Assembly (NCBI GenBank): GCA_041664285.1
Contig: JBAYLA010000001.1
Coordinates: 68,889-132,888 of the forward strand
DNA from: Minisyncoccota bacterium
GTDB taxonomy: Bacteria; Patescibacteriota; Minisyncoccia; Phycocordibacterales; UBA9973
Direction of reading: 5' to 3'
Length of the DNA stretch: 64,000 nucleotides
This document shows positions 2,508 to 33,920 of this stretch, piece by piece. The first letter of the stretch is position 1; the number at the start of each line of letters is the position of its first letter. The notes below the pieces were generated by a model that saw only the letters and a program-made list of their open reading frames with translations, made no database searches and was not told the origin of the DNA. Made by a program: the position numbers and the translations under genes.

Positions 2508-3538
2508 ATCAAACACAAACAACTTTAATTATTTTTGGAGCTTCTGGTGATTTATCAAGGCGGTATTTAATGCCGGCTATTAATAATTTGCAAAAAATGA
2601 ATTATGTGGATACGGTAGTTCCTATTTCTCGTAAAGATTATGGAAATTTGAGAAATTTAATTAAAGAGAGTGGGGAAAAAATATTTCATCTAGCGATTCC
2701 ACCCGAAGCCGTACCGGATGTTATAGAAATAATTAGCCATAATTTCGGTCAAGATAGAGTAAAAATAATCATGGAAAAACCCTTTGGTCGAGATTTAAAA
2801 TCTGCGCAAAACCTTGTACATCATATTGATAAATATTTTCTCGAGTATCAAATTTATCGAGTCGACCATTATTTGGCGAAAGAGTCTTTGCAAAATATAA
2901 TCAAAGAAAAATGGTCTAAAAATAATATTGCCAGTATTGAAATAATTGCCAGCGAAAAAATAGATATAGAAGGACGAGTTAATTTTTATGAACAAACTGG
3001 GGCATTAAAAGATGTTATACAAAGTCATCTTCTTGAAATGATTTCTGTGGTTTTGGCTGGAAGTTTTGAAACGGGTCGTCGGGAAGTTGCGTTAAAGAAT
3101 TTAGAAATTGTCTGCGACATTAGAAAACACGAGTGTGTCAAAAGAGGGCAGTATGAGGGCTACCGCGAGGAAGTAAATAATCAAAATAGCACAACAGAAA
3201 CATTTGTATCAATTAATTTAGCATCAAATGAACCTGCTTGGCGTGGAGTATCCATAGTTCTTTCTGCGGGTAAAGCTTTTAATGAAAAATTGACCCAGAT
3301 AAAAATTAAATATAAAGATAGTAGTGAAAAGATTTTTAATATTGAACATGAACCAGAAGCCTATGAGCGAGTTATTAGGGCTGCTGTGTCAGGAAATCAT
3401 GATTTATTTATTTCAAGTGGTGAAGTGCTTGAAACTTGGAGAATTTTAGACGAGATACAAAAAATTTGGGAAAAAAATGTAGATGATTTAATAATTTACA
3501 AAAAGGGAAGTACTATAAATGAGGTTATAAAAATGTAA
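2504..3538 (+). CDS. zwf: glucose-6-phosphate 1-dehydrogenase, compact form
   Basis: N-terminal GASGDLSRR dinucleotide fold, MEKPFGRDLKSA, RVDHYLAKE (the RIDHYLGKE active-site motif) and FYEQTGALKDVIQSHLL. It is only 344 aa against the usual ~480 aa. Confidence 0.75.
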   Translation: MNQTQTTLIIFGASGDLSRRYLMPAINNLQKMNYVDTVVPISRKDYGNLRNLIKESGEKIFHLAIPPEAVPDVIEIISHNFGQDRVKIIMEKPFGRDLKSAQNLVHHIDKYFLEYQIYRVDHYLAKESLQNIIKEKWSKNNIASIEIIASEKIDIEGRVNFYEQTGALKDVIQSHLLEMISVVLAGSFETGRREVALKNLEIVCDIRKHECVKRGQYEGYREEVNNQNSTTETFVSINLASNEPAWRGVSIVLSAGKAFNEKLTQIKIKYKDSSEKIFNIEHEPEAYERVIRAAVSGNHDLFISSGEVLETWRILDEIQKIWEKNVDDLIIYKKGSTINEVIKM

Positions 3539-9389: not shown

Positions 9390-9580
9390 AATAAAAAAAC
9401 TCCTACCGAGAGGAGTCGACAAATCAAGACATTAAGACTTGATAATTCCTGCTCGGGACAAATAAAATGATTGGTATTCGGACTTGTTCCTCCAATTTTA
9501 GTTGGAAGGACTTACCGTAGCGGCACTGTACTGGAATTCCTGCCTGCGTAGGCGGGTCACCAGTTTCCCCAATCAATTCT
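9390..9580 (-). ncRNA. candidate cobalamin riboswitch with intrinsic terminator (expression platform) leading into the 8558..9376 gene
   Basis: GC-rich island in an AT-rich intergenic region. The minus-strand RNA reads GGGGAAACUGGUGA...GGAAUUCCAG...GUGCCGCUACGGUAAGUCC...AAGUCCGAAUACC. The closest fit to the remembered consensus is CCGCUACUGUGAG plus the terminal AGUCAGGAAACCUGCC. It ends with the terminator GACUCCUCUCGGUAGGAGUUUUUUU about 15 nt before the ATG. Confidence 0.5.
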
Positions 9581-9592
9581 TATAATTTTCAA

Positions 9593-10084
9593 ATGAACTC
9601 TCTTAGTATATACTTACCTCATATTATGTCAAAGGAAGATGTGGATACTAAAAAAATAGCCAGAGAGAAGCTGGTAAAAATAATGGTTTTTGGAACTTTT
9701 GACGGATTGCATCCTGGGCATATTAATTTTTTCCAACAGGCAAAAAATCTTTCTAAAAGTTCATTTTTAATTGTTTCAATTGCTAGAGATAAAAATATAA
9801 TAAAAATTAAAGGGAAAAAATCAACACTTTCTGAAAACGAAAGATTTAATTTAGTAAAACAAAATAAGTTTATAGATAAGGTTGTTCTGGGAGGGAAGGT
9901 CAAATATTTACCCCATATTATAAAAGAAAAACCAGATATTATTGCCCTTGGTTATGATCAAAAAGATTATGTTGAAAATTTAAAAAAAGATCTTAAAAAA
10001 AATGATATTTTAATAAAAATTATACGTTTAAAGCCTTATAAGCAAAAAATTTTCAAAAATAGCTTACTAAAATCAAAAAAATAA
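9593..10084 (+). CDS. cytidylyltransferase-like nucleotidyltransferase (FAD synthetase N-domain / TagD-like)
   Basis: GTFDGLHPGHINFF is the (H/T)xGH nucleotidyltransferase motif. Confidence 0.6.
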   Translation: MNSLSIYLPHIMSKEDVDTKKIAREKLVKIMVFGTFDGLHPGHINFFQQAKNLSKSSFLIVSIARDKNIIKIKGKKSTLSENERFNLVKQNKFIDKVVLGGKVKYLPHIIKEKPDIIALGYDQKDYVENLKKDLKKNDILIKIIRLKPYKQKIFKNSLLKSKK

Positions 10085-24150: not shown

Positions 24151-25278
24151 TTAACTTTTGTATTTTTCTATATCCTTCTTTGCTTTTTTAATAAATTTTC
24201 CAAATCTATAATCTTTTTCATTTCTTTCAACTTCTGTCATTTCATAATATTCAGCTTCTTTTTTTAAATTAATATAATTAGAATATTTTCCTTCATTTAA
24301 ATTACCAGACTTTAAAGCAAATAATACACTACATTCAGGCTCAGAAGTATGAGAACAATCAACAAATTTGCAATTCATAGCTAATTTAGTTATTTCATCG
24401 AAAACATTATCTACACCATCATTAGTATTAGTCATTCCTACTTCTCTCATTCCTGGATTATCTATGACGATACCTCCATTTTTTAAAAAATACATCTCTC
24501 TACCAGTAGTGGTATGTTTACCTCTGTTGGTGTGAAAACTTATATCGTTTGTTTCTATGGCATTTTCTTCGAGTAATTTATTAATCAAAGATGATTTACC
24601 TACACCAGAGGATCCAAGAAAACAATATGTTTTACCTTTTAATATGTACGTTCTTAATTCTTCTAACCCTACATTAGTTAAAGCACTAGTCAAAATGATA
24701 TCAACATTTTTGAATCTATTTTTTATTTGAGCTAATTTCAAATTTAATTCGTCTTTAGAAATTAAATCAATTTTATTTAAAATAATAGTGGACTGAACTC
24801 CTCCGTCGTTGGCTATAGCAAAATATCTTTCGAAACGATTTAAATTAAAATCTCTATCAATTGACTCTATAATAAAAGCAATATCAATATTAGTTGCAAT
24901 AATTTGAATTCCATTTTTATTATTATATTTTCTTTTGATTAATGTTTGTTTGGGTAATATCTCAGTAATTACCGCCCATTCATTATCTTGCTCTTTTATT
25001 GAGACCCAATCTCCCACAGCAGGGTAATCTTCCCTTGATGAGGCATCGAATATTTTTTTTCCAGTTACTTTTGCAAAATACTCGCCACTTGAATTTTTTA
25101 TCTTATAGGCTCCTTTGTATTCAGCGATAACTCGCGCAACAGAAAATTCATCCAATTTCAATTTCTTTCTATTAGATTCAAAGTATTCATTATAACCAAT
25201 ATCTTCATTTTTTATTTCTTTCACAAATTTAATTTTATCACAAATTCGAACTTTTTTTCTTTCTGAATATACCCACAA
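24151..25278 (-). CDS. rsgA: ribosome small-subunit-dependent GTPase A
   Basis: GSSGVGKSSLINKL P-loop, circularly permuted GTPase order, and a C-terminal Zn knuckle CKFVDCSHTSEPEC. TTG start. Confidence 0.85.
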   Translation of the reverse strand: MWVYSERKKVRICDKIKFVKEIKNEDIGYNEYFESNRKKLKLDEFSVARVIAEYKGAYKIKNSSGEYFAKVTGKKIFDASSREDYPAVGDWVSIKEQDNEWAVITEILPKQTLIKRKYNNKNGIQIIATNIDIAFIIESIDRDFNLNRFERYFAIANDGGVQSTIILNKIDLISKDELNLKLAQIKNRFKNVDIILTSALTNVGLEELRTYILKGKTYCFLGSSGVGKSSLINKLLEENAIETNDISFHTNRGKHTTTGREMYFLKNGGIVIDNPGMREVGMTNTNDGVDNVFDEITKLAMNCKFVDCSHTSEPECSVLFALKSGNLNEGKYSNYINLKKEAEYYEMTEVERNEKDYRFGKFIKKAKKDIEKYKS

Positions 25279-25478
25279 TGCAGATAATCACTACTAGTAA
25301 TCCCATTAACTGTCCGCCAGGACTGTCGTCAATTTCACCATAAACAAACAAAGATATTCCAATCAATATTACAAGACAGAGATGCCATATTTTAATTTTA
25401 TTCATATAAAAATATTACCACAATTATAAAAGATTTTTAATTTAACCTTACTTATTTAGAAGCATAGTTTACAAACCA

Positions 25479-26002
25479 TTAAGTAGTTTGCAAACTATCA
25501 TTATATAAAATTTTAAGCTTCTCTAACCCTCGATGTAACTGCACGGCTACGGTGGCTTTGGAAGTTCCGGTTATTAATGATATTTCTTTTATTGATAAAT
25601 CTTGCACATATTTCATGCGCATTACTTTTTTATACATTTCAGGAAGACGCTCGATTAATAAAAGTGCAACCTTGCCGTCTAAAACATTAAATAATCTTTT
25701 AGGATCTTCTGCTTCTGGTTCGAAGCCTTTCTCCATCATTACATCGAGAGAGGTTGTTTTACGTTTTCGATATTCATCTACAATAAGATTATTTAGTACA
25801 TGATAAAGAAAAGCTCTCATTATTTCTATTTTCCCTCCTTTGACCAGATAAATCCAAGTTTTCATGAAAGTATGTTGTACTAAGTCTTCTCCTGTTTCAT
25901 GGTTACTTAGTTTAAAATAGGCACGAGCATTTAAGCCTTTTTCAAAGTTATTGTGGGCTTTAGTCAGTATCCCGTCAAGTCTTTTTTCTCTTTCGGGGTC
26001 AT
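25479..26002 (-). CDS. ECF-type RNA polymerase sigma factor, interrupted by an apparent frameshift in an A6 run
   Basis: Region 4 HTH VQDLSIKEISLITGTSKATVAVQLHRGLEKLK. Region 2 (GEDLVQHTFMKTW) continues upstream in the same frame with no ATG. The ATG at 26002 (MTPKEKKDLTGY*) is in the adjacent frame, and the two join if the gagAAAAAAgac run (25982-25987) had one more A. Confidence 0.6.
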
Positions 26003-26317
26003 TATATTGAAGCCGTTTGGGGCTCTATTATGTTACCTCTTTATTACAAGAGATATTTTAATAATGGAAATATTCAGTTTTTATAGGGGCAGTAGGGGGA
26101 ATCCGTTTTTGAGATAGTTACAGAGGAATTACGCTTGGGCACTAGATAGTTGTGTTTTTCAAGTTAATTAACTTTAGCACGTATGTAGTCTAATAGCTAG
26201 TCGTAACAATTAGTATTTATGAACGGCATTATAGTTAAGAAAAAGAATAAGGTCGATATTATTCAGGAAACAGTGACGAGAGGTAAATAAAGTTTATTAA
26301 ATAAAATAAAAAATAAT

Positions 26318-28252
26318 ATGAAAAAAATATCAAGTTTAATCAATAAAGCAATGGCTGGATTTATGATCTTGGCTTTTGCGTTCGGCTCTACTGGAGTCGG
26401 CATAGTAAATATAGCGCACGCAATAACAACACCCAATTGGAATACTACGGGAGCTTATGTAATAAATATGGAATATCTAGGAATACAATATCCTCATGAT
26501 CTTAATTTAGTTCAAGATGGCCTTGGCAACTTAACCGGCAACGGTGCAAGTCCCGCTGGAGCAAATATCTATACCTATGACATTACTTCTGGTTTAGTTG
26601 ATGGTGATTCTATAACTTTTACCGCAAACTATACCGCGACCCCAGATGCAGTAATTCCCCAAACGGTATTAAATGTTACTGGCATAATAGCAAATGATGG
26701 CACAATCTCTGGAACTTGGTCTGACAATTATGCAGGAGGTGAAAGATCTGGTGCTATTTCAACTGTAAGCGGTGTAGCAATTTTATTAAACAATGAAGTA
26801 ACTCCTACGATAGCTATTGACCTAGGAACAGCAGCTAATTTTGCCATCTTGGCAGAATCAGCAATTACGGATGCTAATCCTGCTATTTCCAGTATCACTG
26901 GAAATGTTGGAATCAACCCAGCAGCTGGTTCATTTATTACCGGTTTATCTTGTACAGAAGTAGCAGGAACAATCTATGATGACGCTACCTATACAGGTGG
27001 TTATGATTCAAATGTATCCTGCCGAATTACCGACACAACACTACTTGGTATAGCTGTAGGTGACAAGCAAGCAGCTTATACTGCTGCGACAACAGGAACA
27101 CCTGCCGGGGTTGGAGCTACTAACTTAAACGTAGGGGCTGGAACTCTTACTGGGAACAATTTTGTTCCCGGAACTTACACTTGGAATACCCCAGGTGATG
27201 TAAATATCACTGGAGATATAACCCTTACAGGTACAGCGACAGATGTTTGGGTATTCCAAGTAGCTGGAAACTTAGATGTTAGTTCTGCAGTAACTATTCA
27301 TTTAGCTGGCGGAGCATTGCCCGCTAATATTTTTTGGGCAGTGGCAGGAACAACAACCCTAAAATCAACTTCTAGCTTTGAAGGAAATATTCTAGGTGCA
27401 TCGACCATTGCATTGCAAGATGGGGCAAAATTAAACGGGAGAGCGTTATCAAAAACTGATGTCACATTAATTGGTAATTCTATTTCTATTCCAACATCAT
27501 CTCCAATAACAACAAAAGTTGTTACGGGCATAACATCTTCTGACGCAACACTAAACGGTACAAATGGTATCAATGATGCATCTGGACATTCATTCTGGGT
27601 CTCATTAAACACATTTGACACTTCAAGTCCAACAATTCCAGTTGGCGTTTATTCAACTCCTGATTTTGGAGCGATATCTGCCAATACTGATTTTTCGGCA
27701 ACTCTTTCATCAATTGCAGGTCTTCCAGCAATAACTCCAAACACAAAATACTATTTTACAGCTTGGTCTAATGTAGATGGCACATGGTATCCTGGTCAAG
27801 TGTTGAGTTTCACTACTGCTACAACGGGAGGAGAAATTGGTGGAATTGTTGAAGGCGAAGGTGTGCTTGCTGTATCTTCTGTGGAGGTAGTAGACAGCAC
27901 AGCGATAGCAGACGGAACTTTTGGTAATGGTTGGAAATATGTTTTCAATGTTACTATTCCCACAAATGAAACTCATCTAGCTATGAAGTTTGCAAATTGG
28001 ACACAAACTGGAGGAAGTGGATCTATCGCAGTGGCGAACAATATGAGAATCTCTTCTCTTCAAGCAAACAATGGCAATGCGACGATCTTAATAACTGCCG
28101 CTAACACTTACACTACCCCTACATTAAACATGATCAGTGATCTTGATCCTGGATTAGCTGGAATACAAGTACAGGTTACGGTCGAAACAGCTGTTCCTAT
28201 AGGTTCTCTAAATGGGTCTTATACTACCAATTACGGGATATTAACTAATTAA
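26318..28252 (+). CDS. large secreted protein with DUF3494 (ice-binding-protein-like) beta-solenoid domain
   Basis: Signal peptide, then AANFAILAESAITDANPAISSITGNVGINPAAGSFITG, the characteristic DUF3494 opening. Thr/Gly/Ser-rich throughout. Confidence 0.55.
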   Translation: MKKISSLINKAMAGFMILAFAFGSTGVGIVNIAHAITTPNWNTTGAYVINMEYLGIQYPHDLNLVQDGLGNLTGNGASPAGANIYTYDITSGLVDGDSITFTANYTATPDAVIPQTVLNVTGIIANDGTISGTWSDNYAGGERSGAISTVSGVAILLNNEVTPTIAIDLGTAANFAILAESAITDANPAISSITGNVGINPAAGSFITGLSCTEVAGTIYDDATYTGGYDSNVSCRITDTTLLGIAVGDKQAAYTAATTGTPAGVGATNLNVGAGTLTGNNFVPGTYTWNTPGDVNITGDITLTGTATDVWVFQVAGNLDVSSAVTIHLAGGALPANIFWAVAGTTTLKSTSSFEGNILGASTIALQDGAKLNGRALSKTDVTLIGNSISIPTSSPITTKVVTGITSSDATLNGTNGINDASGHSFWVSLNTFDTSSPTIPVGVYSTPDFGAISANTDFSATLSSIAGLPAITPNTKYYFTAWSNVDGTWYPGQVLSFTTATTGGEIGGIVEGEGVLAVSSVEVVDSTAIADGTFGNGWKYVFNVTIPTNETHLAMKFANWTQTGGSGSIAVANNMRISSLQANNGNATILITAANTYTTPTLNMISDLDPGLAGIQVQVTVETAVPIGSLNGSYTTNYGILTN

Positions 28253-28265
28253 AAAAGGAAAAATT

Positions 28266-28814
28266 ATGAAACATAATTTATTATTAAAATCATTATTTGT
28301 ACTTATGTTGACGATTGGCTTATCTTCATATGCATACGCTTCAGAAGTGACAGGAACATTATCTTCAACAAGTACAGGAAATGAAAATAGTACAAGTGTA
28401 AGTGGCTCTATTTCTGGAACAGTATCATCTCCTTCATCAGGAACTGGCGGTGGTTCCTTTAGCAATGGAAGTAGTAATGGTAGTGTTCTAGGTGCATCAA
28501 CGGGCCCAATAATAAGTCCTATTATCTCAACAAATAATACCTTTTCTCCTAACAATACAGCGTTCGTGCCCTCATCTCGTGGTCTGGCAATTAGTTCCGG
28601 AACAGATGATGGAGCAGTCGCTATTGATGGAAATGTATTAGGAGCTGAAGCAAATCCAGATATAACTTCTCCACAAATAGCTGCGGCTACAGGAGGGTTT
28701 ACTGGTTTTAGCGGGATGACTTGGTTTTGGATTATAATTCTGCTTTTATTACTTCTTGCATTTATAATTTATCTTTATAAGCGAGAGGATAAAAACAAAG
28801 TAAAAATCCAATAG
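28266..28814 (+). CDS. Ser/Thr/Gly-rich surface protein with C-terminal TM anchor
   Basis: Signal peptide, low-complexity STG-rich body, then WFWIIILLLLLLAFIIYLYKRED anchor with a basic tail. Confidence 0.5.
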   Translation: MKHNLLLKSLFVLMLTIGLSSYAYASEVTGTLSSTSTGNENSTSVSGSISGTVSSPSSGTGGGSFSNGSSNGSVLGASTGPIISPIISTNNTFSPNNTAFVPSSRGLAISSGTDDGAVAIDGNVLGAEANPDITSPQIAAATGGFTGFSGMTWFWIIILLLLLLAFIIYLYKREDKNKVKIQ

Positions 28815-28861: not shown

Positions 28862-28898
28862 AAAAATCACCCTACACCAGTAGGGTGATTTTTTGTTG
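28862..28898 (+). terminator. Rho-independent terminator
   Basis: aaaaatcaccctac-acca-gtagggtgattttttg. Confidence 0.6.
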
Positions 28899-28931
28899 TA
28901 ATAATTTATAAACAACAACGGCTCCGGTGAT

Positions 28932-29489
28932 ATGAAAACAAAAAAGAAAGCGAATGGAGAAGATTTAGTGGAACACATATGGGAAAAAAGTTGGACTTAT
29001 ATTAAGACGGTTGTAGATGTAGTCAGAGAACCAATTTTAGTTCTAGACAAAGACTTAAGAGTGATGGCAGCCAATGAATCGTTCTATAGAGTTTTTCAGG
29101 TTGAATTAAAGGATACAGAAAATAAGGTGGTATATGAATTGGGAAATGGCCAATGGAATATACCTGATTTAAGGAAACTTCTCGAAGATATTCTGCCTAA
29201 AAACACTTTTTTTAAAGGCTTTGAGGTGACACACAACTTTCCATTTATTGGACGGAAAGTAATGATTTTAAATGCTTGTCAGATTCATTTTAAGGAAGAT
29301 ACAACGTCCAAGTCATTCCCGCCGATTATACTTTTAGCCATGGAGGATATTACGGATATGGTGGTCGTAGCAGAAACATTGGCTGACCACGCCAATAGTG
29401 TGGAAATAAAGTTTGTTAAAAAAACAGAGAAACTAGAAACACACATAAAAGAATTAGAAAGGAAAATAACAAAACTTCAGAAGAAATAA
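28932..29489 (+). CDS. PAS-domain protein with C-terminal coiled coil (no output domain)
   Basis: ILVLDKDLRVMAANESFYRVFQV...GRKVMILNACQI has the PAS-fold pattern. Confidence 0.45.
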   Translation: MKTKKKANGEDLVEHIWEKSWTYIKTVVDVVREPILVLDKDLRVMAANESFYRVFQVELKDTENKVVYELGNGQWNIPDLRKLLEDILPKNTFFKGFEVTHNFPFIGRKVMILNACQIHFKEDTTSKSFPPIILLAMEDITDMVVVAETLADHANSVEIKFVKKTEKLETHIKELERKITKLQKK

Positions 29490-29535
29490 GATACGAAAAT
29501 TGTAATATTTTTTTTACTGCAACGGCATCATAGGT

Positions 29536-30078
29536 ATGAATATGAAAGTAAAAAAAATAGCACTGCTCGTAATACCAGCCCTACTTTTTTCTTTTACTGC
29601 TTTGGCAAATGATACAAACTATCCAATAAATGAATATGATAGTATTTATAGATACAACGCCCTAGAAAATAAAACGTCCTTTATGCCTTCGAATCCAGGA
29701 GATGATTCTGATCAGTCAGATGTGATGTCTCCTGTAAATAATGAATTGACTGATGACATAAAAAAGTTAAAAGACATAATTGAAAGACAAAATAGTTCCA
29801 TAGAACAATCAGAAAATGCCATGAAAAATATAATGAACAGGAATGGAGTGGAAACCTTCTTGCTCGGAAACAACTTAGGAATACTTAAATTCCAAATGGT
29901 TCAAATGGAAGATCAGGGGTACAAGCTTAAAGCCCTCGCTTTTACAACAAAGGATTCTACGCTAGAAATAAAAATAAAAAACCAAATTGATATTCTTAAC
30001 AAAGAAAAAAGTAAGGTCGAAAATTTTATTTATCAGCGAGATAATAATTTTAGTTTATTTGGGTGGCTTGTAAACTAA
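29536..30078 (+). CDS. secreted hypothetical protein
   Basis: Signal peptide with a coiled-coil-like middle. Confidence 0.4.
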   Translation: MNMKVKKIALLVIPALLFSFTALANDTNYPINEYDSIYRYNALENKTSFMPSNPGDDSDQSDVMSPVNNELTDDIKKLKDIIERQNSSIEQSENAMKNIMNRNGVETFLLGNNLGILKFQMVQMEDQGYKLKALAFTTKDSTLEIKIKNQIDILNKEKSKVENFIYQRDNNFSLFGWLVN

Positions 30079-33037: not shown

Positions 33038-33751
33038 ATGAAGGGAGCTAGATTGAGACTTAAAGACCACGGAGATTTCTCGCCATATTTAAAGGAAATT
33101 TGTCAATTTCCTCTTTTATCGAGAGATGAAGAAACCGCACTGGCTAAGCATAAAGAAAAAGGAAAAGAAGAAGCCCAGGAGAAAATGACAAAAGCCAATC
33201 TTAAGTTGGTTGTAAGTATCGCAAAGAAATACAAAAATCGAGGATTACAATTCTTCGATTTGGTCCAAGAAGGTAATATCGGCTTGATGAAAGCTGTTGA
33301 AAAATTTGATTGGACGAAAGGATACAAATTTTCTACCTATGCGGTGTGGTGGATTCGGCAGGCCATCCAAAAGGCATTAGCCGATCAATCAAGAACTGTT
33401 AGAGTTCCAGTGCATATGGTTGAAAAGATTAATTGTCTAATTCGTGCTTCTCGTGATTTTGTCCAGGAGTTTGGTCGTGAGCCAACTCCCGAAGAAATCG
33501 CCAAGAAGACGGAATATTCACTAGAAAAAGTGATGGAGATATTAAAAATCTCCAAAGGAACTATTTCTTTTGAGACTCCCATAGGGGAAGAAGAGGACTT
33601 AACCTTAGGAGACTTTGTGGAAGACAAAGAAAGTGGAGATCCGCTTTCTTTGTCTGTCAATGTTGATTTAGAGGAAATTGTTAGAAAAACTCTTTCAACA
33701 TTGAGGACGCCGGAGGAAAAAGTTATTAGACTTCGTTTTGGCATTTGCTAG
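33038..33751 (+). CDS. sigma-70 family sigma factor (regions 1.2-3 and start of 4.1) terminating before the region 4.2 HTH
   Basis: Region 2 [13 protein letters not shown]...[18 protein letters not shown]...[13 protein letters not shown] and region 3 [12 protein letters not shown]. The ORF ends ...[12 protein letters not shown] where homologs continue into the -35-binding helix-turn-helix. A hairpin terminator follows. Confidence 0.65.
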
Positions 33752-33786: not shown

Positions 33787-33824
33787 GAGAGCCTACGACT
33801 GAAAAAGCGTAGGCTCTCTTTTAC
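33787..33824 (+). terminator. Rho-independent terminator
   Basis: gagagcctacg-actgaaaaag-cgtaggctctctttt. Confidence 0.55.
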
Positions 33825-33920
33825 ATAAAATCAGAATTTACTAATTTTTTCTACAATATTCCACTAGATAGAGGATGCTAGAACTTGTTTGTTTAAGAGA
33901 AGAATAAGAAAGATTTATAT

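Follow-up and report, generated by a model that had tools for sequence, protein, structure and literature searches.

A one-nucleotide deficit in the 5' poly-A run of a conserved ECF-type sigma factor gene from a Minisyncoccota bacterium

The stretch of DNA analyzed here, which we call "the window," comprises 64,000 nucleotides from a Minisyncoccota bacterium (contig JBAYLA010000001.1 of assembly GCA_041664285.1, positions 68,889 to 132,888), and all coordinates below are counted from its first letter. On its minus strand, at 25479–26002, lies a gene for a sigma factor of the extracytoplasmic function (ECF) type with a one-nucleotide deletion close to the 5' end, the repaired product of which would be 174 residues long. 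The minus strand begins with the ATG at 26002 and reads ATG ACC CCG AAA GAG AAA AAA GAC TTG ACG GGA TAC TGA; the residual open reading frame (ORF; 25964–26002) thus consists of 12 codons (MTPKEKKDLTGY) and is closed by the TGA at 25966–25964. The sigma factor itself is encoded in the −1 frame, which is open from a TAG 24 nucleotides upstream of ATG 26002 down to the stop at 25479. The shift between the two falls on a run of six adenines (A6) at 25982–25987, T6 on the plus strand, corresponding to ancestral codons 6–8; this is the presumed site of an A7 to A6 deletion, and the closest related locus has an in-frame A9 here. Adding one A to the run produces the continuous 174-residue protein. The frameshift, the position of the run and the effect of the added A had all been noted in an earlier reading of the letters and their translations (the sequence-only reading), and they stand. 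That reading also described the gene as split, which overstates the case: only seven codons precede the shift, which makes it a 5'-end frameshift.

In the sigma frame the first ATG, GTG, or TTG to appear is the ATG at 25863–25865, codon 47 once the protein is repaired, where an ORF of 128 residues (25479–25865) begins. The sequence-only statement that the conserved part has no start codon is therefore right for canonical starts upstream of region 2 and wrong beyond that, since this internal ATG and the non-canonical codons ATA and CTG (25965–25970) exist; ahead of region 2, re-initiation is conceivable only at the latter two. The TGA of the short ORF overlaps the CTG, the codon of the conserved Leu13 (CTGA). 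Databases hold correspondingly different models. The 128-residue model (P0039; JGI, ENA, and Logan) lacks the N-terminal part of region 2, and the NCBI Prokaryotic Genome Annotation Pipeline (PGAP) gives a protein of 163 residues (P0001, MFA6353420.1, beginning MLTKAH) from the ATA at 25970–25968. The copy in the NCBI metagenome-assembled genome (MAG) must carry the same shift, because PGAP needed the ATA start. An alternative genetic code, with TGA read as glycine or tryptophan, was rejected because the ATG frame meets a TAA a few codons later. Three models for one gene, of 128 residues, 163 residues from an ATA, and 174 residues with a frameshift, are a routine annotation problem, and the correct description is a conserved ECF sigma factor gene with a one-nucleotide deficit at codons 6–8.

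The assignment to the ECF sigma factors, already made in the sequence-only reading, is borne out by the domain models. The repaired protein matches Sigma70 region 2 at residues 28–82 (25758–25922, minus strand) and Sigma70 region 4_2 at residues 115–163 (25515–25661, minus strand) in Pfam, which finds no region 3; this σ2/σ4-only architecture, lacking regions 1.1 and 3 in proteins of about 160–220 residues, is the one that defines the ECF (group IV) sigma factors. TIGR02937, the sigma70-ECF model, scores 57.2 bits against a cutoff of 42.9, and none of the equivalog-level models reaches its own cutoff with the repaired protein. The best matches in the PDB are SigW, SigH, SigL, and SigE, and both the family models and the solved ECF sigma factors align only from residues 13–28 onward. 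An AlphaFold model of the intact ortholog P0002, based on 69 homologs, is too poor to judge residues 1–12 (mean predicted local distance difference test score 61, predicted template modeling score 0.38). A literature search on ECF sigma factors of Patescibacteria returned nothing relevant.

The ancestral reading frame can be read from the relatives. Searching a large protein collection gave 2,591 of them, and the best 120, which we inspected, are nearly all 168–176 residues long and come from MAGs of Paceibacteria/Parcubacteria (Patescibacteria). More than 100 Paceibacteria homologs begin with M-T-P-K at the position of ATG 26002, and the usual N-terminus continues with about eight residues rich in Lys, Gln, and Glu, followed by an invariant L-T-x-A-H. 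The closest relative (P0002; 86% identity, 174 residues) has the N-terminus MTPKEKKRLDGILTKAH, exactly as predicted by the repair, with the first 17 residues identical. Its DNA (locus L004) reads ATG ACC CCG AAA GAA AAA AAA AGA CTT, with the A9 in frame. Because the ortholog N-termini and this sister sequence match the repaired reading, ATG 26002 is evidently the ancestral start, and the window has A6 where A7 is needed. That the lesion is a one-nucleotide deficit relative to the ancestral frame is thus confirmed by orthologs that start MTPKEKKRL, the nearest of them in frame.

The same comparison bears on the age of the lesion. Window and sister locus differ at synonymous positions (GAA/GAG, TTG/CTG, ACC/ACT, and CAT/CAC), and the N-terminal peptide has evidently been under selection. 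Against L004 the ratio of nonsynonymous to synonymous substitution rates (dN/dS) is 0.13 (dN 0.080, dS 0.63), and the rest of the gene contains no further stop or frameshift. The ORF is disrupted relative to intact orthologs, and none of the other marks of a pseudogene was found, neither multiple lesions, nor a dN/dS near 1, nor decayed regulatory sites. Since there is a single lesion, a low dN/dS, and, as described below, intact promoters, any inactivation would be recent and a pseudogene of long standing can be set aside.

Upstream of the gene lies a promoter of ECF type. In the regions upstream of 137 unique orthologous loci, aligned on the L-T-x-A-H anchor, the motif G[TG]AA[CT]-N15-18-CG[GT][CT] precedes the sigma factor gene in 95, with a spacer of exactly 16 nucleotides in 82, an arrangement typical of ECF promoters, with the AAC-type −35 and CG-type −10 elements on either side of a 16-nucleotide spacer. 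Orthologous loci often have a second copy of the −35-like TGTAAT box some 10 nucleotides upstream, sometimes as an inverted repeat (TATTACAG...CTGTAATA). In the window the motif takes the form GTAAC-N16-CGGC at 26012–26036 on the minus strand and ends 9 nucleotides before ATG 26002. The stricter pattern GTAAY-N16-CGGC occurs four times in the 64 kb, against 0.24 expected, and none of 100 shuffled sequences reaches four; all four copies lie within 3.5 kb, each pointing into a gene. Besides the copy in front of the sigma factor gene, these are at 26203–26227 (plus strand), 91 nucleotides upstream of the ATG of a DUF3494 gene at 26318; at 28898–28922 (plus strand), 9 nucleotides upstream of the ATG of a PAS-domain gene at 28932; and at 29502–29526 (plus strand), upstream of a gene for a secreted coiled-coil protein. 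Promoters of the sigma-70 type around the gene are not in excess (7 found, 6.0 in shuffles). The four copies appear to form a local regulon of the ECF sigma factor, which would recognize these promoters and, through the copy in front of its own gene, autoregulate. The 9-nucleotide gap between CGGC and ATG is shared by 39 of the 52 orthologous PAS genes that bear the strict motif (108 PAS genes considered). With the −10 element this near to the ATG, neither a leader nor a Shine-Dalgarno sequence could fit in between, and so the mRNA would be leaderless or nearly so.

Similar lesions occur in other lineages. We anchored 160 fetched loci (143 unique sequences) by tblastn and inspected each for lesions, both in the 5' segment and in the body of the gene; every scan kept its best 80 matches, and a frameshift in the body lowers the score of a locus, so that any contrast between 5' end and body is inflated. 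Deficits of one nucleotide in the 5' poly-A are found in three other lineages among the 143 unique loci, L005 (GAA AAA AAC GG) and L011 (CAA AAA AAC AG), each with A7 where A8 is needed, and L147, with A8 where A9 is needed, an ambiguous case for which a 2-nucleotide insertion after the ATG is the alternative. Among the other lesions, the gene body of L142 is one T short (T6 for T7, at A-F-F-K). The ATG of L113 is in the other frame, and the PAS gene of that MAG is interrupted by an N-gap. Codon 9 of L130 is a TAA, and a scaffold gap interrupts the sigma factor gene of L164. Of nine lesions, six are located within codons 1–12 of a total of about 172 (binomial p = 8e-6, a value inflated by the best-80 selection), and among tracts that were ancestrally at least A7, 4 of 12 are shifted in the 5' segment versus 0 of 11 in the body (p = 0.056). 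Two orthologs have an in-frame TGA, one at the invariant tryptophan (L066/L099, near locus position 3120, FMKT*KYLV) and the other at a conserved glycine (L131, near position 3476, HR*LKKL); nonsense mutation, error, or a reassignment of TGA in those lineages might account for them.

The tract itself is not kept by selection across relatives. In 140 unique loci, the longest run in the 5' segment is A5 or shorter in 116, A6 in 13, A7 in 9, A8 in 1, and A9 in 1, that is, at least A6 in 24 and at least A7 in 11. Across the family, A makes up 45.5% of codons 2–12 and T 9%, whereas A accounts for 31% of the gene body; a single frame is kept in about 95% of orthologs. Since these codons are rich in Lys, Gln, and Glu, the poly-A runs would be a by-product of an A-rich 5' coding end and not a conserved element. 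A-rich 5' coding ends generally favor initiation on unstructured or leaderless mRNAs. The first 12 codons being A-rich, and similar lesions having arisen independently in other lineages, the 5' end would be the mutational weak point of this gene.

The neighborhood of the gene is where its presumed targets lie. The divergent DUF3494/Ice_binding-like gene (26318–28252, plus strand; ORF and Pfam) encodes a secreted protein of 644 residues and is a putative regulon member. Control of this gene by the sigma factor was a guess of the sequence-only reading that gains support from the same motif upstream; in related loci, DUF3494 homologs near the sigma factor gene have the motif within 250 nucleotides upstream in 27 of 36 cases. 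It is followed by an ORF (28266–28814, plus strand) for a Ser/Thr/Gly-rich protein of 182 residues with an N-terminal signal-like and a C-terminal hydrophobic segment and no Pfam match, which, given the 13-nucleotide gap, is probably co-transcribed with it. The PAS-domain protein (28932–29489, plus strand) has 185 residues and a coiled-coil tail and is the conserved partner of the sigma factor family, as the related loci show: it is present in 110 loci, with best matches of 72–80% identity, and its gene lies upstream of and divergent from the sigma factor gene in 104 of the 109 loci carrying both. The last putative member (29536–30078, plus strand; ORF and motif) is a secreted coiled-coil protein of 180 residues with a signal-like N-terminus. 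A YggT-like gene has the motif upstream in 17 of 37 cases.

The sequence-only reading found the gene to lack a partner. No recognizable anti-sigma factor gene, a usual though not universal neighbor of ECF sigma factor genes, is adjacent, which is correct; the description misleads all the same, as the conserved PAS-domain partner lies about 2.9 kb away. In the window the DUF3494 and 182-residue genes sit between the two, and in most related loci only 70–340 nucleotides separate sigma factor and PAS genes. A sequence search of the PDB with the PAS protein gave no match; the protein is a candidate sensor or regulator of the sigma factor. A 55-residue membrane ORF (25238–25405, minus strand) was considered as a miniature anti-sigma factor and rejected, having no Pfam match and no homolog in the 160 loci. 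Situated immediately 3' of the sigma factor gene and overlapping the start of rsgA, this ORF has two hydrophobic segments and may not be a real gene.

The sequence-only reading had named a sequencing error, a pseudogene, and a phase-variable switch as causes to be considered and had not decided among them. Taken together, we consider it somewhat more probable than not that the dominant sequenced population carries a real A7 to A6 deletion, and with it a recent loss-of-function or strongly hypomorphic allele. The deletion would have arisen by replication slippage at codons 6–8 of a sigma factor gene that was functional until recently. Transcription from the gene's own ECF-type promoter would give a leaderless or near-leaderless mRNA, on which translation would begin at the 5' AUG (26002) and reach the UGA after 12 codons, with loss or a strong reduction of full-length sigma factor. 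As the promoter appears to be autoregulated, the effect would extend to the regulon: the local set comprising the DUF3494 surface protein, the PAS partner, and the secreted protein would be turned down. The A6 state would be reversible in principle by slipped-strand mispairing, and nothing shows a selected switch. As a homopolymer frameshift, the lesion is commonplace and its kind well known.

The alternative that survives best, though we think it unlikely, is a sequencing or consensus artefact, with A7 and an intact 174-residue gene in the real genome. Across the site and for 8 kb beyond it, the window is matched with 100% identity by an ENA contig assembled with MEGAHIT (k141_1450224) and by two Logan contigs from SRR6484324, an accession for which a literature search gave no paper. 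As these different assemblers agree on A6, the run is not one assembler's quirk, and an assembler artefact is unlikely; the identity suggests one underlying read set and not an independent sample. Nor does the assembly have a general homopolymer problem. The window contains 256 runs of A6/T6, 85 of A7/T7, 29 of A8/T8, and 3 of A9/T9, and a scan for long ORF pairs joined at A7/T7 or longer found none among the 117 such runs. The sole adjacent ORF pair overlapping at an A6, examined as a further candidate, consists of two distinct genes (a cytidylyltransferase and a phosphoglucomutase) and is not a split ORF. Judging by the contig names, these are short-read assemblies, a type in which confusion of A6 with A7 seldom reaches the consensus. 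Furthermore, the adjacent conserved PAS gene has no lesion in about 87 complete copies compared with 9 in 143 for the sigma factor gene (Fisher p = 0.015).

Several points nevertheless weigh against a real deletion with loss of function. All assemblies of the species probably derive from one sample and share the same reads, which makes a systematic read error or a mixture of A6 and A7 compatible with their agreement. The species was sought in JGI metagenomes (best 79% identity) and among GTDB representatives (best 73%) and not found, and exact look-ups with the DUF3494, PAS, 55-residue, and 128-residue proteins returned only the same ENA contig and the window-identical Logan contigs. Indel errors in metagenome assemblies amount to a few per 100 kb, and such rates could alone give several lesions in the approximately 73 kb of sigma factor genes surveyed. 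The five homopolymer lesions in the family are all one-nucleotide deficits (5/5, p = 0.03), as under-calling of run length would give; the pattern fits a mutational deletion bias or the selective survival of rescuable alleles equally well. Some of the lesioned MAGs are poor at this very place, as the N-gap in the PAS gene of L113 and the scaffold gap within the gene of L164 attest. The NCBI annotation, too, treats the gene as intact, by way of the non-canonical start. Finally, the gene looks functional apart from the shift, and purifying selection and intact regulon promoters fit a still-expressed gene, with a true A7 or with low-level rescue, just as well. A recent mutation, an artefact, and a still-expressed gene are thus all compatible with the contig identity, the homopolymer scan, and the dN/dS. 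Should reads show A7, the case would be a reminder that homopolymer consensus errors create spurious non-canonical starts in MAG annotation.

If the A6 is real, enough sigma factor might still be made from it, a possibility we regard as improbable. Three routes come into question: addition of an A by the RNA polymerase, a −1 slip of the ribosome on G_AAA_AAA, and re-initiation after the UGA at the CUG or AUA. The last would yield a product lacking only the 11–12 N-terminal residues, of which the 163-residue PGAP model is a special case, and that part of the protein lies ahead of where family models and solved structures begin to align. In favor of rescue in general, the clustering of lesions in the first 12 codons is what tolerance of 5' shifts would give, although it owes something to ascertainment, and low-level compensatory frameshifting at "savior" indels is documented (PMC5009743). 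The direction of the homopolymer lesions, all deficits, is also the one that transcriptional slippage corrects, as transcription errors at A/T runs are insertions, with a frequency that rises exponentially with run length (PMC5574713). Productive slippage, however, uses about nine A/T (PMC5574713, PMC5009743), and A6 should give very little: the run falls short of the eight to nine or more needed to fill most of the 9-bp RNA:DNA hybrid.

Among the translational routes, a programmed −1 frameshift was rejected, since the zero frame reads G_AAA_AAA_G, which lies outside the canonical X_XXY_YYZ register and would require re-pairing in the P-site from AAA to GAA. The sequence downstream of the run folds no better than shuffles (z = −1.2 and −1.8), giving no stimulatory RNA structure, and the two-frame arrangement is not conserved; with nearly all orthologs in frame, nothing is programmed. 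For re-initiation, the stop of the short ORF overlaps the CTG here and a TTG in L005 and L147 (TTGA), which speaks for this route; against it, AUA and CUG initiate poorly, and no Shine-Dalgarno sequence precedes them.

A broader proposal would make the A-rich 5' end a recurrent, reversible ON/OFF point in Paceibacteria, at which loss of one base would shut down a set of surface and secreted proteins (DUF3494, the PAS partner, and others), and only deficits would persist because RNA polymerase insertions supply a little in-frame mRNA for positive autoregulation to amplify; we hold this, like rescue, to be improbable. Rather doubtful, too, is an evolved phase-variable (contingency) switch with a maintained poly-A tract, in which slippage would flip the autoregulated sigma factor and its surface-protein regulon ON and OFF. 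The homopolymer does lie within the first few codons of a regulator gene, and the motif of this regulator is found ahead of genes for surface and secreted proteins, and OFF-type alleles occur in four lineages, with ON alleles of A7 to A9 elsewhere (for example A9 in L004). Short poly-A tracts in regulators also offer a precedent, those of flgR and flgS, which phase-vary in Campylobacter jejuni, an organism without mismatch repair (PMC3928116). The tract is, however, A5 or shorter in most orthologs, and its A-richness is explained by composition. In the lineage of the window a GAG codon shortens the A9 of the sister, and A6 or A7 is short for high-frequency switching: A6, ancestrally A7, is at the short end of the known phase-varying range, known only in organisms without mismatch repair. 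Moreover, no ON/OFF polymorphism was observed within any one species, the ON state being found only in other species. Members of the candidate phyla radiation are thought to live attached to host cells, and were reads to show mixed tract lengths, this would be a first candidate for regulator-level phase variation in that radiation.

The weakest reading, an old and decaying pseudogene, has in its favor that the ORF is disrupted relative to all close orthologs and is scarcely credible given the single lesion, the dN/dS, the intact promoters of the gene and of three further regulon members, and an N-terminal peptide identical to that of the sister lineage despite synonymous changes.

Two further features of the window are worth recording. 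A second sigma factor gene, RpoD-like (33038–33751, plus strand), contains regions 1.2, 2, and 3 and ends with RLRFGIC* at the very start of region 4, which was sought in the downstream frames and is absent from them. The gene is followed by a GC-rich terminator-like hairpin with a T-run at about 33790–33825, and a homolog from another lineage (P0124; 69% identity, 238 residues) has the identical RLRFGIC end, so that it looks like a conserved sigma factor without region 4 and not a local truncation. At 9452–9618 on the minus strand lies a cobalamin riboswitch (Rfam RF00174; score 36.2 bits, gathering threshold 31.5), in what is a reduced genome of the Paceibacteria type.

Beyond the lesion, the context yields a sigma factor/PAS module highly conserved across Paceibacteria, its promoter motif, a probably leaderless layout, and what appears to be a small regulon that includes DUF3494. 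Among known systems, the repaired protein resembles the group IV ECF sigma factors SigW, SigE, SigH, and SigL (PDB 5wuq, 6jcy, and 6dv9) in its σ2/σ4 architecture and its length of about 170 residues, and the gene resembles those of autoregulated ECF sigma factors in having an AAC-type −35, a 16-nucleotide spacer, and a CG-containing −10 upstream. It differs from them in that there is no recognizable anti-sigma factor gene and a conserved divergent PAS-domain partner instead, in that the −35 is GTAAT/C and not GGAAC, and in that its promoter runs right up to the start codon, which points to a leaderless mRNA.

The lesion also has its counterparts. With the poly-A frameshifts of Buchnera and Blochmannia (PMC5009743, PMC5574713) it shares an AT-rich, reduced genome, purifying selection on the gene, and a deficit that an insertion would correct; the rescued tracts of these endosymbionts, however, have about nine or more A's, and at A6 slippage should be very rare. 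The frameshift sites of dnaX (A_AAA_AAG) and IS1 (A_AAA_AAC) are similar in that AAAAAAG is present and a −1 shift is needed, and the zero frame of L005 and L011 contains A_AAA_AAC itself, the IS1 heptamer. In the window the register is G_AAA_AAA, no stimulator follows, the out-of-frame layout is not conserved, and translation in the zero frame yields just 12 residues, a peptide for which no role can be imagined. The nearest analogues, along with the endosymbiont frameshifts, are flgR and flgS of Campylobacter jejuni, where a one-base change in a short coding poly-A of a regulator turns a surface-structure regulon off, as the deficit would here. There, switching is reversible and occurs at measured rates, whereas here a single state is found in the species and the tract is not conserved among orthologs.

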